This document shows positions 571 to 5,921 of a stretch of 5,921 bases of DNA, one piece after another (positions within the stretch are counted from its first letter, which is position 1; each line of letters starts with the position of its first letter). The stretch lies in the NCBI RefSeq assembly GCF_003334815.1, contig NZ_QOWO01000069.1; one strand, 5' to 3'. Source of the stretch: Escherichia coli. GTDB lineage: Bacteria; Pseudomonadota; Gammaproteobacteria; Enterobacterales; Enterobacteriaceae. Below the pieces are notes generated by a model that was not told where the DNA came from, made no database searches, and was given only the letters and a program-made list of their open reading frames with translations. The position numbers were made by a program, and so were the translations under genes.

Positions 571-732
571 CTACTTACCGCCGGATTCGTAAGCCATTGT
601 TGCCGTAACTTCCCTGTATCCGTCCTTCAGCCGGACTTCGCACAGGCGATTCCGGGTCAGGAGTGTGAATATCAACAACGTGCAGCACACGATTAATACG
701 CACCAGATAAGGGCGTTTCCCGGTAGTTTCAT
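571..732 (-). CDS. hok: Hok-family type I toxin (small membrane-depolarising peptide), 53 aa
   Basis: Hand translation of minus strand from ATG at 732 to TAG at 571-573 gives [53 protein letters not shown], which closely resembles R1 Hok (hydrophobic N-terminus, conserved LCE and MAYESG motifs). RBS AAGGAGGAG about 6 nt upstream. Absent from the ORF track because it is under 60 aa. The symbol flmA/srnB is equally possible depending on the plasmid. Confidence 0.85.
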
Positions 733-790
733 GGTTTACTCCTCCTTGCAATTTGCACGGTAAGAGGCCATACTGACGTGGATGAGACAT
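575..790 (-). CDS. mok: Mok-like overlapping reading frame (translation of hok is coupled to it)
   Basis: 71-aa ORF in a different frame that starts upstream of hok (ATG at 790) and overlaps almost all of hok, ending 4 nt before the hok stop; this is the characteristic mok/hok arrangement. Confidence 0.6.
746..774 (+). promoter_or_regulatory. Candidate sok promoter: -35 TTGCAA (746-751), 17-nt spacer, -10 CATACT (769-774)
   Basis: Plus-strand sigma70-like hexamers opposite the mok translation initiation region, at the position of the sok promoter in R1 hok/sok. The -10 is weak (4 of 6 match). Confidence 0.4.
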
Positions 791-845
791 ACAGTGGGCC
801 TCGTGGGTTAATGAAAATTAACTACGGGGCTTTCTGCTTTCTGCC
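780..845 (+). ncRNA. sok: Sok-like antisense RNA (antitoxin of the hok/sok system); ends approximate
   Basis: Inferred from the hok/mok architecture: an antisense RNA of about 64 nt starting just after the candidate promoter and complementary to the hok mRNA leader / mok start. Coordinates estimated, not measured. Confidence 0.4.
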
Positions 846-900
846 ACACGACAGGATAACAAACCACCTTCACGTCATGAGGCAGAAAGCCTCAAGCGCC

Positions 901-940
901 GGGCACATCATAGCCCATATACCTGCACACTGACCACACT
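901..940 (-). promoter_or_regulatory. Candidate hok/mok promoter; -10 TATGAT at 907-912 on the minus strand, transcript 5' end near 900
   Basis: Minus-strand sequence from 900 downward (GGCGCTTGAGGCTTTCTGCCTCATGACGTGAAGGTGG...) matches the 5' end of the R1 hok mRNA as I recall it. TATGAT lies 6 nt upstream of that 5' end. The -35 is not clear. Confidence 0.45.
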
Positions 941-1146
941 CACTTTCCCTGAAAATAATCAGGTCGTTCAGCCAGTTCCCGGGCAATCAGTTCATCCGCA
1001 AACAGTGGTGCATGCCTGTTGATACGTTTCTCCAGATTCCGCCGTCGTACCGCAGCCTTACGTTCTTCGCTCCAGCGGCGCACCGGGCGGTCAGAAATAA
1101 AATCCAGACAGACCGCATACCCTGCTCCGGCAACCCAGCGTGACAT
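940..1146 (-). CDS. Hypothetical small protein (68 aa from ATG at 1146; the track ORF extends to a GTG at 1287 and would overlap the psiA 3' end)
   Basis: Open frame between psiA and the hok promoter. C-terminal part is charged and helix-like (RRWSEERKAAVRRRNLEKRINRH...). No convincing Shine-Dalgarno before ATG 1146. Start and reality both uncertain. Confidence 0.3.
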   Translation of the reverse strand: MSRWVAGAGYAVCLDFISDRPVRRWSEERKAAVRRRNLEKRINRHAPLFADELIARELAERPDYFQGK

Positions 1147-1250
1147 AACGGATGCCGGAGCAGGCTGCCCCGCCTCCACCACTTCTGAAACCAGTTCATG
1201 CTCGCCAGGACAGGGATAAGGCAGTTTCCAGCGCAGTGAGTAACGCCACT

Positions 1251-1970
1251 TCACGCCGCCTCCCGGAGTTTGTTCGGCACCATCCACCGCTCCATCTCAC
1301 GGACGGCATGACCGGCCTCCCTTGCCGCCATACCAGCCTCTGCGGTGACCTGCCAGAATGGCATATCCTGCCACTGCCAGCGTTCCATCCCGGCCAGTGA
1401 CGGAAAACGCTCGCCCCACTGCCAGAACAGGGTTTCCAGGTCATGCTCTGCCACCCGGTCACTCCAGCGTGCATGCCAGCTTCCGACTGTTTCCGGTGAA
1501 TGGAACGCCAGTTCGATTTCTGCCTGAGCAACCAGCGCCTGGTACGCACGGGTTTTCTGCTCTGCCTCCCTCGCCTGCTGACGGCTGTACTTCTGCATGA
1601 CCAGTGCGGATTTATGGCGACTGCGTTCCCTGACACGGAACCGCACTGACGGGAACAACTGCTCTGCTGCATCGCAGGGAAGAGGAAGAAGGCAGACCTC
1701 GCCCTGAGTTTCAATCAGCACATCGACGGCATACAGCCACTGAGAACGGTTGCCGCGCAGTTCTTCTGCGGTCAGGGACGGCATGAAAAATCGCAGGTCA
1801 GACAGCGAAATCCTGCGGCTTCCGTTCAGACAGCGGAAAAACGCCCCCGCATACGGATATTCCGCCAGCGTGTTCCCCTGATGGCGGCGTTTTTCCGTCT
1901 CCGCCACCGCCTGCCATGCGGCCTGTTGCTCTGTGCTGAGGGGAACCAGTGCCTGTGAACGTGCGCTCAT
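1251..1970 (-). CDS. psiA: Plasmid SOS inhibition protein PsiA, 239 aa
   Basis: 239-aa ORF immediately downstream of and translationally coupled to psiB (ATGA overlap at 1967-1970); length and sequence match PsiA of F-like plasmids as recalled. RBS GGAAGGAGG about 6 nt upstream. Confidence 0.9.
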
Positions 1971-2455: not shown

Positions 2456-4423
2456 TCAGGCGGCATCGGCCTGGTTGTCACGGTATTCCGTGGTTTCCGT
2501 CTCTGCCTGTGGACGTGGTGTACACATCCAGCCAGGCACCCAGCGGTTGTCTTTCATGTGGAGCTCTGCATGTTCAGCCGCATCGCCTTTCTTCATTTTC
2601 TCCGCGTCCCGCGCAGCACCGGACAGTCCTGCATCATTCAGGGCATCGATAATCTGCGGCTTTTTCAGATGTCCGAAGAAGTTTGCTTTTGTCGGCTGCC
2701 ACCAGTCACGCATGTGGAACCCGATAGCGGTTTCCAGCGAGTCAAGCGGACTGCGTGACGTGTGACCATGCTCGCGAGTCTGGACACCATCCACGGAACA
2801 GGCTGTACAGAAAACCATCAGACTCATCAGAGTCTGTCCGTTAAGCGTGAAGAATGTGGTGAAATCTTTCTGCCAGCCCTCCGGCAACAGAGCCTCCAGA
2901 CGGGCTTTTTCCTGCATCAGACTCAGCCACGCCTGACCTCTCTTTCCACCGGGAGCATCACTTGTCAGCCTTCTGTGATTCTCTTCAATCTGTATCCTGA
3001 ACGGGTGGAGAGTGGTATTGCAGTAATCAAAAACACAACAGCACAATCGCCAGACCATCAGTGCCACTGTTTTTTCAGGTTGATGTATCAGCGCCGCCTG
3101 GACTGCCAGCGTGCGCTCTGAGGACATTTTCGTCAGCAACGGCAGGCTGATTTCCTCCACTGACGCTTTCTCCTGCACCTGTTCCGTGCGGTCAGCGTCG
3201 TCAGCCACGTCATCCTCACTGCGCAACTGCACACCACGCTGGACACACACGTTGCCATAACGCCAGGACACCACCACTCCACCTCCGGCACGCATCTCCG
3301 GCGTCCACGCTCTGACCTTCGCCATGCAGCGCATCAGCTTCATTTCTGCTTCCAGCAGGTCAGATTCCTCACACTGGTTTTCCAGCGCGTCGTAACGCGT
3401 CATCAGTTCGTTCAGGCGTTCTTCTTCCGCCTCCGTCAGCACCGCTTCCGGCTCCGGCAGACAGCGGTATGTTCCGGCATCCTCACGGCACTCACCGACA
3501 GGCTCCATGCGCCCGGCGCACCATTCCCAGCCTTCGGCTTCCCGAAGGTGTTCAGCAACAGCCTGGAGTTTTTCCAGCAGGGCGGCATTGAGCGCCACGC
3601 AGTCCACATAGCCACCTTCGTCGTCGCTGAACAAATCGGTGCGCAGTTCATCTGGCGAGAAGGCATCAGCCCCCACAAAGCGGAATTTACTGTTCCCCGC
3701 CACCGCCACTTCACTTTCGGTCACCAGACGACGAATGGTCTGTACTTCCGGTTTACCGCCCCATCCCGACTGACAGGCGGCTTCAAACACCTGCACCTGA
3801 CGCGCGGTGTCATTCTCCAGCGCCAGCGCCTGACAGTGTTCGGTGGTGATGCGGTCTTCTGCCAGCGCATCGAGGATGACAGGCGCAAGGTCAGCCAGTT
3901 TCAGCATTCGCTGGACATGGCGGGGTGAATAACCCAGCAAGTCACCGATTTGTGCAGGTGTTTTGCCTTCCTGCGCCATTGCGCGGAATCCGGCAATCTG
4001 TTCGGCAGGATGCATATCCCGACGATGACCGTTTTCAGTCATTGATGCGGCAGTCGCCAGCTCCTGCGGAATGACCTTCACACGGACAGGCCAGTCAGCC
4101 GGAAGGATGCCACGCTCTGCCAGCATGTTGAGTGCAGCCAGTCGGCGACCACCTGCGGCGACACCGTAACGCTCACCCGACAGGGCATGAACAACCAGAT
4201 TCTGCAACAGGCCGACGCCCTTAATGGACTCCGCCAGTTCGCTGACGGACTCTGCGGAATACGGCACAGTGCGCACATTCAGCGGTGATTTAATCAGTGA
4301 GGCCAGCGACACGCTCACTTCTTCCGTCTGCGCCAGCAGGGCAGACAGTGCAGTCTCCTGCACTTTTGACGGTTTACGGCTGGATTTACGCCCCGCTTTT
4401 ACCTTAAACTCTGTAACTGACAT
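2456..4423 (-). CDS. ParB/Srx-domain protein of the plasmid leading region (ParB-like nuclease/DNA-binding domain at N-terminus, long uncharacterised C-terminal region), 655 aa
   Basis: 655-aa ORF with ATG at 4423 and RBS AAGGGA. N-terminus carries ParB box motifs (SPLNVR around residues 46-51; GGRRLAAL at residues 91-98, resembling the GERRxRA arginine patch) and a helix-turn-helix-like segment (TPAQIGDLLGYSPRHVQRML). The C-terminal ~400 aa have no motif I recognise. A large ParB-like gene next to ssb is a hallmark of IncF/IncI leading regions. Confidence 0.85.
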   Translation of the reverse strand: MSVTEFKVKAGRKSSRKPSKVQETALSALLAQTEEVSVSLASLIKSPLNVRTVPYSAESVSELAESIKGVGLLQNLVVHALSGERYGVAAGGRRLAALNMLAERGILPADWPVRVKVIPQELATAASMTENGHRRDMHPAEQIAGFRAMAQEGKTPAQIGDLLGYSPRHVQRMLKLADLAPVILDALAEDRITTEHCQALALENDTARQVQVFEAACQSGWGGKPEVQTIRRLVTESEVAVAGNSKFRFVGADAFSPDELRTDLFSDDEGGYVDCVALNAALLEKLQAVAEHLREAEGWEWCAGRMEPVGECREDAGTYRCLPEPEAVLTEAEEERLNELMTRYDALENQCEESDLLEAEMKLMRCMAKVRAWTPEMRAGGGVVVSWRYGNVCVQRGVQLRSEDDVADDADRTEQVQEKASVEEISLPLLTKMSSERTLAVQAALIHQPEKTVALMVWRLCCCVFDYCNTTLHPFRIQIEENHRRLTSDAPGGKRGQAWLSLMQEKARLEALLPEGWQKDFTTFFTLNGQTLMSLMVFCTACSVDGVQTREHGHTSRSPLDSLETAIGFHMRDWWQPTKANFFGHLKKPQIIDALNDAGLSGAARDAEKMKKGDAAEHAELHMKDNRWVPGWMCTPRPQAETETTEYRDNQADAA

Positions 4424-4483: not shown

Positions 4484-4756
<273 letters not shown>

Positions 4757-4774: not shown

Positions 4775-5302
4775 TCAGAACGGAATGTCGTCATCGAAGT
4801 TATACGCGGGTTCAGACGGCTGCTGAGGCTCGGGCTGCGCGGCCTTACGTCCACGGCCTTTCGTTTTCGCGCCTCCTTTTTTCGGTTCCGGCTGTGGTTC
4901 CTGCTGAGGCTGACCGCTGAACTGTTGTGCCTCTTCCGGCTGAGTCTGAGCACCTGCGGCACGTCCCAGCATCTGCATGGTGCCCGTGGTCTTAACAAGA
5001 ATTTCAGTGACGTAACGGGTGATACCGTTATCTTCCCAGCTACGGGTACGGAGTTGCCCCTCGATGTAGACCTGCTCGCCCTTGTGCAGATATTCACCGG
5101 CCACTTCCGCGAGCTTGCCGAACAGCACCACGCGATGCCATTCTGTCTGCTCCCGTATCTCCCCCGTCTGTTTGTCACGCCAGCTTTCTGACGTGGCCAC
5201 CTGCAGGTTTGCCACTGCGCCCCCGTTTGGGATGTAACGGACTTCCGGATCTTTTCCCAGACGACCGACAAGAATGACCTTGTTAATGCCACGAACTGCC
5301 AT
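4775..5302 (-). CDS. ssb: Plasmid-encoded single-stranded DNA-binding protein, 175 aa
   Basis: Translation from ATG at 5302 ([48 protein letters not shown]...[19 protein letters not shown]...) has the SSB OB-fold core, a Gln/Pro-rich linker and the acidic C-terminal tail DDDIPF. Strong RBS AAGGAG 7 nt upstream. The track ORF begins 13 codons upstream (5341), but the RBS-supported ATG is at 5302. Confidence 0.92.
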
Positions 5303-5485
5303 GATGTATCTCCTTCTGTTGATGTTTTCAGCCCCCATCATCTTTTGAGTTTCGGGAGCCGCGGTTTTGACGTTTTGCGGGGACCTGCCTTTTGTTCCCT
5401 ACGGTATTCACCATCACCTTTTTGAGAACCTTCGCCGCAAGGGGCATCACTGCCACGGCCTGACGCACCTGTCCTGGGCAGAACG

Positions 5486-5630: not shown

Positions 5631-5921
5631 GACCCGCCGCAACGACGTGAAGCGCGGTTTGCGAAACGGCGTTGCGCCTTACATCCCGGCGGCCTTTTGC
5701 CGGGATGCAGGGAGCGCAGGCCACGGCGCGACAGAGGCGGCGCGACCGGAACGGTCGCTGCAAGCCAGGGGTTTCGCGTCAGGGATGGAAGCCCGTCAGG
5801 GCGGAGACAGCTTCGCTGGCTCCGTTCACGACAGCCCGCCCCGTCAGGGGGACGCCCGGAAAAGGCATAAGCAGGAGAACAACAAAACAGACAGTAATCA
5901 GAGCAGCAGAAAAAAGAAGAA
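5631..5921. repeat. Copy B of the ~290-bp direct repeat; candidate Frpo/ssi-type single-stranded-DNA promoter upstream of the ssb operon (runs to the window end, so may be truncated)
   Basis: 5682..5901 is identical to 51..270; flanks diverge. Begins about 330 nt upstream (minus-strand sense) of the ssb start codon. Same internal hairpins as copy A. Confidence 0.6.

Follow-up and report, generated by a model that had tools for sequence, protein, structure and literature searches.

A 104-codon gene following psiA in the leading region of F-like plasmids, with a proposed early role in plasmid establishment

The leading region of a conjugative plasmid enters the recipient cell first and carries genes that decide the establishment of resistance plasmids, and most of the proteins encoded there have no known function. 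Here we describe one such gene, located in a 5,921-nucleotide stretch of Escherichia coli DNA (contig NZ_QOWO01000069.1 of assembly GCF_003334815.1; the whole of this stretch is referred to below as the window), in which every gene is on the minus strand and the gene order is typical of the leading region of an F-like plasmid. The gene, which together with its product we call by the working name X, occupies positions 940-1254 (minus strand) and follows directly upon psiA. It is already annotated in the databases and is functionally uncharacterised. As set out below, X is a genuine gene of 104 codons that is likely to form the last cistron of a leading-region operon, with a proposed role early in establishment.

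Several described systems bear comparison with X. The F promoter Frpo2, located upstream of psiB and psiA, is needed for the zygotic expression of the downstream genes that were tested, ssb and yfjA, and the Frpo promoters are off once the DNA has become double-stranded (Couturier et al., PMC9849209). PsiA and PsiB have the same operon and the same inferred early expression from Frpo2 as X, which is coupled to psiA. However, neither PsiA (PF06952) nor PsiB (PF06290) has any relation in sequence or fold to X, which has no Pfam match; X also occurs in elements that carry no psi genes, and from F it has been lost although psiA and psiB remain. A second point of comparison is YfjB, renamed HerB in a July 2026 preprint, where it is reported to bind the host chromosome and to reprogram host transcription after transfer (PMC13370423). 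Long uncharacterised and a member of the same operon as X, HerB provides a precedent for the modulation of the host by a leading-region protein through DNA binding. Nonetheless, HerB is a 655-residue, cytidine triphosphate-binding ParB/helix-turn-helix protein, whereas X has 104 residues, no helix-turn-helix, and an unrelated fold. The third is a protein family rather than a protein. In their survey of genes enriched in leading regions, Samuel et al. 2024 (Nature; PMC11541004, Supplementary file 3) list a family 39 with 1,302 members (false discovery rate p 0), whose median position is the eighth open reading frame (ORF) from the origin of transfer (psiA being the seventh) on the same strand, which is described as "Uncharacterized; Theronine dehydrogenase," and which has no match to anti-CRISPR or anti-restriction sets. 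X appears to be this family (representative A0A290YNM1), the two being equated by name and position.

An earlier, sequence-only reading of the window had drawn attention to a minus-strand frame at 940-1287, which is present in the ORF list with 115 codons from GTG 1287, and had suggested as an alternative start the in-frame codon ATG 1146, which would give a product of 68 residues; it had also held that the frame lacks a good ribosome-binding site. Both proposed starts are wrong, and a ribosome-binding site is present. X starts at GTG 1254-1252 and ends at TGA 942-940, yielding a product of 104 residues. The start codon overlaps the psiA stop codon (TGA 1253-1251) as GTGA, and the Shine-Dalgarno sequence GGGAGG (1264-1259) precedes it with a spacer of four nucleotides, such that the entire junction (1251-1264, minus strand) has an arrangement typical of translational coupling. 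The same model was reached by the NCBI annotation pipeline PGAP in a record that is 100% identical, that of E. coli plasmid pWS1933D_95 (NZ_CP035838; identity over the X-hok interval, 880-1320), where the 104-residue coding sequence WP_000872086.1 starts with a 4-nucleotide overlap of the stop of psiA. Likewise, the alignment with the profile of PHROG 27524 begins at residue 12 of the 115-residue ORF, which is the GTG 1254 start.

To examine the start further afield, we fetched ten diverged copies of the gene from plasmids of Escherichia, Klebsiella, Salmonella, Enterobacter, and Pseudomonas. The codon aligned with GTG 1254 is ATG in all nine of the intact copies. In seven of the nine, the start lies four nucleotides before the stop of the gene upstream; in one group it lies three nucleotides after that stop; and the Pseudomonas copy has its ATG start with no overlapping upstream gene. 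Six relatives linked to psiA show the same 4-nucleotide overlap as the window junction, in the form ATGA, and the psiA-linked copies also conserve a GGAG located 5-7 nucleotides upstream of the start. The N-terminus itself, MKWRYSLRW, is conserved among the diverged copies. A start at GTG 1287 is excluded because in three relatives (L007, L011, and L012) the frame closes four codons upstream of the ATG; the upstream extension (1255-1287, minus strand) belongs to the mechanical ORF only, is not conserved, and falls outside both the PHROG and the family alignments. The 68-residue model is excluded because the codons upstream of ATG 1146 (1144-1146, minus strand; the codon for the internal residue Met37) are as constrained as those downstream: the ratio of the proportions of nonsynonymous and synonymous differences (pN/pS) is 0.205 for the 36 upstream codons versus 0.211 for the remainder. 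Moreover, the N-terminal motif W-Y-L-W-NPYT-PG is found throughout the family.

Is the frame protein-coding? The sequence-only reading had left open whether it was a conserved small accessory gene or noise and had named the balance of synonymous and nonsynonymous change as a way of deciding. We aligned by codons eight enterobacterial copies and the Pseudomonas copy. The ratio of nonsynonymous to synonymous substitution rates (dN/dS) ranged from 0.045 to 0.19 in pairwise comparisons, with a median of 0.09, the synonymous rate being mostly above 1 and hence saturated. Among the 104 codons, variable columns numbered 41, 29, and 91 at the first, second, and third positions, respectively. The frame of X contains no stop codon in any aligned copy, and each of the other frames contains stops in nearly all copies; the apparent dN/dS was 1.7-2.3 in four of these frames and 0.17 in the antisense frame that is in codon register. 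The pattern of substitution, which goes well past anything that chance would produce, thus marks X as a genuine protein-coding gene under strong purifying selection, and of the two possibilities that had been left open, the conserved coding gene, with its low dN/dS and wide set of homologues, stands and noise does not. The idea that the conservation stems from a non-coding function was considered and is ruled out by the codon-position pattern together with protein homology across classes of bacteria.

The sequence-only reading had also suggested a profile search. Pfam gave no match to X even at E<=10 and none among 50 family members, and the NCBIfam and PADLOC searches returned no family matching X. 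The sole library match was PHROG 27524, a family of unknown function (E=4.3e-23; residues 12-115 of the 115-residue ORF against profile positions 3-115 of 117), of which X is fully a member, having the same length, motif, orientation, and place right after psiA. No structure has been solved for any protein of this family. The motif, derived from a 50-member alignment, reads W-Y-L-W-NPYT-PP-G...PG-GY...RRWS-E-KA-RR-NL-R-KAPLFADELI-EL-RP-YF-G. Arg70 is invariant in this alignment, and conservation reaches 90% or more at W9, G17, G45, R77, P83, L84, F85, and Y100; the X of the window carries all of these residues and fits the family in length (about 100-120 residues).

The family is widespread. 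When 1.84 billion cluster representatives (50% identity) were searched exhaustively, 312 clusters matched at E<=1e-3, typically of 100-125 residues. Homologues span from the Enterobacteriaceae to alphaproteobacterial phages; those of phages RcapNL and vB_RhkS_P1 are 36-40% identical to X over the full length. Among plasmids, tblastn detected X in 3,683 records, 3,599 of them at a coverage of at least 80% and mostly at 60-80% identity, with Klebsiella accounting for 2,688. Wherever psiA is annotated in these records, X adjoins it.

X is 100% identical to RefSeq protein WP_000872086.1, a "hypothetical protein," and to cluster P0001. The other name in use for the family is "theronine dehydrogenase," a misspelling that has spread across NCBI and UniProt. 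The name is evidently an annotation error, because X has 104 residues and no dehydrogenase domain. Threonine dehydrogenase (Tdh), a zinc-dependent alcohol dehydrogenase, is an enzyme of about 340 residues with a Rossmann fold and zinc sites. X has no match to the Pfam domains ADH_N and ADH_zinc_N and is predicted to fold as a beta-sheet with a helical hairpin; all that it shares with Tdh is the propagated, misspelt name. A search of the available literature library with that name and with four RefSeq accessions found no papers.

The sequence-only reading had stated that disruption of the frame in close relatives would count against a gene, and such disruption is indeed common. A megablast search with the interval from the 3' end of psiA to the hok promoter hit 4,552 plasmids, only 325 of which contained the whole interval; the remainder matched in the flanks only and spanned about 196 base pairs. 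Alignment revealed a deletion of about 244 nucleotides that leaves a relic of the 3' end of X, and in F itself (NC_002483) 9 nucleotides stand in place of 253 nucleotides of the window. In a survey of 5,426 complete E. coli genomes, 2,983 had psiA and 255 had the internal part of X (about 8.5% of the psiA carriers), which leaves about 91% of the psiA-positive genomes without it. Thus, the frame is mostly destroyed in E. coli relatives, including F, by the deletion of about 244 nucleotides, just as the refuting observation had been framed, but it is not noise. The disruption reflects the lineage-specific loss of a real gene, and a naive application of that test would mislead. Comparison of the intervals shows that the presence of X between psiA and hok is the ancestral state and that the F lineage has lost the gene by deletion, which explains its absence from the classical literature on F.

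The relic and its surroundings merit a few further observations. In F the remnant of the 3' end of X (L021, 10689-10770) comprises about 60 nucleotides, contains in-frame stops, and adjoins the hok promoter. In pVP445 (L002, 1581-1769), PGAP has annotated a "hypothetical protein" of 62 residues across the relic on the opposite strand, which is probably spurious. In a Klebsiella oxytoca plasmid (NZ_CP069944; L014, 1501-1905), X is unannotated and is frameshifted after about residue 55, and has thus become a pseudogene in a way that does not involve the F-type deletion. Also, an unrelated gene of 169-172 residues can occupy the slot between psiA and hok, alone in p62 (L003, 1570-2088) and between psiA and X in pC16EC0702-1 (L007, 995-1504). 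This gene, too, has 4-nucleotide stop-start overlaps; it has no Pfam match, and its resemblance to YraN-type (UPF0102) proteins falls short of the threshold (E 0.02-0.04). The psiA-hok slot (at about window position 1254) behaves as a small site for variable cargo.

We modeled the structure of X with AlphaFold2, using the 50-sequence alignment as input. The model has a mean predicted local distance difference test score (pLDDT) of 95.2 and consists of strands (residues 2-9, 20-27, and 46-53) and helices, of which a short one spans 34-37 and the others 63-81, 83-96, and 98-101. The predicted fold is, in other words, an N-terminal three-stranded sheet followed by a strongly basic C-terminal helical hairpin. 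Foldseek searches of AFDB50 and BFVD with this model retrieved family members only, all of them uncharacterised, from Enterobacteriaceae, Pseudomonas, Rhodobacter, Acetobacter, Deinococcus, Rubrobacter, and an uncultured myovirus. Searches of the PDB gave nothing meaningful, the hits of the profile search being insignificant (E 0.11). The fold is thus predicted with confidence, and it is an orphan, resembling no structure that has been characterised. The family is basic (median isoelectric point [pI] 9.9), and its C-terminal half is more so than its N-terminal half (10.7 versus 7.8), with lysine or arginine highly conserved at positions 59, 60, 66, 70, 71, 72, 76, 77, and 80. The sequence-only reading had described the portion that begins at ATG 1146 as basic and helix-like, and in this it was correct: the C-terminal 68 residues have a pI of 11.1 and include the predicted helices at 63-81 and 83-96.

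Longer proteins of the family gave no informative domain fusions of the Rosetta-stone kind. Of the candidates considered, P0192 and P0226 are low-complexity artefacts; P0118, which has a fragment of Antirestriction, and P0112, which matches Pfam PF05857, are singleton deletion chimeras; and the others are read-through products.

We turn now to the operon. Upstream of X, and likewise on the minus strand, the window contains psiA (1251-1970; annotated in NZ_CP035838 as "plasmid SOS inhibition protein A"), psiB (1967-2404), a ParB-like gene of 655 codons (2456-4423), a small DUF905-type ORF (4484-4744), and ssb (4775-5341). The ParB-like gene is the homologue of yfjB of F. Beyond ssb, at 5661-5917, lies a 257-nucleotide repeat that is 97% identical to F and represents the homologue of the single-stranded DNA (ssDNA) promoter Frpo2; its fold as ssDNA has a z score of -3.1. 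A second copy in direct orientation, at 30-286, is 97% identical to the first and 5,631 nucleotides away from it, and the two bracket the block from ssb to psiA, X, and hok. The repeats match F at two sites, upstream of ssb (97%, the Frpo2 position) and between hok and the gene that comes after it (93%, the Frpo1 position). We infer that the Frpo2 homologue is the promoter of a unit composed of ssb, the DUF905 gene, the ParB-like gene, psiB, psiA, and X. Because X lacks a promoter of its own and is not cut off from psiA by a terminator (a scan of the window found no terminator-like site between psiA, X, and hok), X would be cotranscribed with psiB and psiA from Frpo2. As the last cistron of this unit, it would be made transiently, during the first minutes that follow entry by conjugation, and would be nearly silent thereafter. 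In the steady-state transcriptome of pBIC1a, the values for the hypothetical gene after psiA, psiA, psiB, parB, ssb, and the next gene are 2, 2, 3, 5, 7, and 19, respectively, so that the gene after psiA is at the very low level of psiA itself (PMC6286996); plasmid transcriptome papers list the gene after psiA only as hypothetical (PMC6286996).

Downstream, X is followed by the hok/mok/sok locus (571-901, minus strand), which comprises the sok/hok-leader RNA (730-901), mok (575-790), and hok (571-732). A hok promoter-like site of sigma-70 type (907-936, minus strand) has a -35 element TGGTCA (936-931), an 18-nucleotide spacer, and a -10 element TATGAT (912-907); the promoter scan found two sites, compared with 0.3 expected in shuffled sequences. 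The sequence-only reading had the frame ending where the hok promoter begins, and we agree, since the stop codon of X (TGA 942-940) is three nucleotides before the start of the -35 element and the match to the Rfam family sok (RF01794; 901-730, 98 bits) begins beyond it, at 901. All components of the type I toxin-antitoxin locus are contained within 571-901 and so lie outside X. As a minor point, the hok ORF of the window has 53 codons from its first ATG, and PGAP gives a Hok/Gef coding sequence of 40 residues in NZ_CP035838 (L001, 2128-2250), a discrepancy in the start.

Outside IncF plasmids, X occurs in a variety of settings, in several of which neither psiA nor hok is nearby. In a Pseudomonas MOBF plasmid it is found near a DUF4942 gene and a cytosine methyltransferase gene. 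In an integrative and conjugative element (ICE) it lies between genes for Antirestriction (PF03230) and RadC, upstream of the genes for a type IV secretion system, and elsewhere it follows immediately upon a ParB-like gene in a cluster that includes SSB. Among phages, it sits between a CI-like repressor and primases in the early region of Rhodobacter phage RcapNL, it has a homologue in a Mu-like Rhodovulum phage, and in a Mu-like prophage it adjoins GemA, DUF3164, and DUF2786. A chromosomally integrated copy, meanwhile, keeps the order SSB-DUF905-ParB-PsiB-PsiA-X-Hok. What these contexts have in common is the first-expressed accessory region of a mobile element. Two metagenomic contigs (L023 and L015) carry distant homologues of X together with filamentous-phage genes, one with Zot and the other with a gpII-type Rep. 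There are hints in these arrangements that the family is shared by ssDNA phages and conjugative elements.

What, then, might X do? We tentatively propose that it is an establishment or host-modulating factor, possibly one whose arginine-rich helix, with its conserved Arg70 and Arg77, binds a polyanionic target, be it nucleic acid or an acidic protein of the host. X would act independently of PsiA, because it is also present where psiA is absent.

An alternative, which we regard as unlikely, is that X is a classical anti-defence protein, that is, an anti-restriction or anti-CRISPR protein or some other immune inhibitor directed against a specific host system. The company that X keeps in leading regions, among genes for anti-restriction proteins, methyltransferases, SSB, and PsiB, is what this view would lead one to expect, as is the enrichment of the family there. 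The distribution, too, with X frequent in Klebsiella plasmids and mostly lost from those of E. coli, is as a host-specific counter-defence would predict. But X is basic, unlike the acidic DNA mimics, and neither our searches nor those of Samuel et al. found any similarity in sequence or fold to known anti-CRISPR (Acr) or anti-restriction proteins (ArdA, ArdB/KlcA, Acr).

Distinctly less probable is the idea that X serves PsiA as a dedicated partner and, as a third "Psi" component, joins PsiA and PsiB in modulating RecA and the SOS response. A deletion of psiA slightly lowers SOS induction (PMC8406263), and the translational coupling of X to psiA and its direct adjacency to it in thousands of plasmids would suit a partnership. 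X is nonetheless found without psiA in the Pseudomonas plasmid, the ICE, the cluster with ParB-like and SSB genes, and Mu-like, filamentous, and other phages; another gene separates the two in pC16EC0702-1; and in F psiA and psiB are present without X.

We consider it very unlikely that X is a regulator or a component of the hok/sok module, such as a repressor acting on the adjoining hok promoter. It is true that X stops only three nucleotides from the hok -35 element and that F has kept the relic of about 60 nucleotides beside that promoter, but hok does not directly follow X in most of the copies from Klebsiella and Enterobacter, the phage and ICE copies have none, and F-type plasmids run hok/sok without X. 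More improbable still is that the gene is real and yet begins at GTG 1287 or ATG 1146: both codons are in frame, and some automated gene callers do yield 115-residue versions (P0002 and P0005), but the alignments that begin at residue 12, the ATG of relatives with its upstream stop in three of them, the equal selection on either side of ATG 1146, and the Shine-Dalgarno sequence and stop-start overlap all point to 1254. Finally, that we are dealing with a fortuitous ORF, or with non-coding spacer, conserved through constraints on the 3' end of psiA or the hok promoter, as its frequent deletion in the nearest E. coli relatives (F included) and its lack of Pfam or NCBIfam matches might suggest, can be dismissed in view of the third-position variation and low dN/dS at saturated synonymous divergence, the full-length homologues in about 3,600 plasmids, alphaproteobacterial phages, and 312 clusters, and the very confident predicted fold.

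Several considerations weigh against our overall reading of X. We found no experiment on the protein in the literature. The gene is dispensable in the F lineage, being lost from some nine-tenths of the psiA-positive E. coli genomes, and any function that it has must therefore be conditional. The timing of its expression is deduced from its position in the operon, and F, in which Frpo2 was tested, has no X. Both pBIC_00078 and family 39 of Samuel et al. are equated with X by position and the misspelt name only. The start codon of the window allele is GTG at a codon where the relatives have ATG. The invariant arginines could be structural, forming salt bridges, and structure searches found no match between X and a DNA- or RNA-binding fold, such that the target of the basic helix is speculative. 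An AlphaFold2 model of X joined to itself in tandem by a linker gave no confident homodimer (predicted template modeling score 0.31, mean pLDDT 78.7), a weak negative owing to the shallower alignment and the linker construct.

Even so, the family of X is among the larger uncharacterised families of the leading region, being represented in about 3,600 plasmid records, mainly of Klebsiella IncF resistance plasmids, and it is missing from F and so has escaped experimental work there. What has been gained is a corrected gene model, of 104 residues with its start at the psiA stop; a warning about a misspelt family name by which automated summaries of gene function in resistance plasmids could be misled; and, for experiments on function in Klebsiella-type plasmids, a defined target. 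It is conceivable, though we would not press the point, that X founds a new class of early host-modulating or anti-defence factors with an orphan fold, common to conjugative plasmids, ICEs, and filamentous phages, all of which enter or replicate as ssDNA, and to Mu-like phages. Such factors would work through the arginine-rich helix, with nucleic acid or a host protein as the target. If this is true, its loss from F-type plasmids would explain how X came to be missed by decades of work on the leading region of F.

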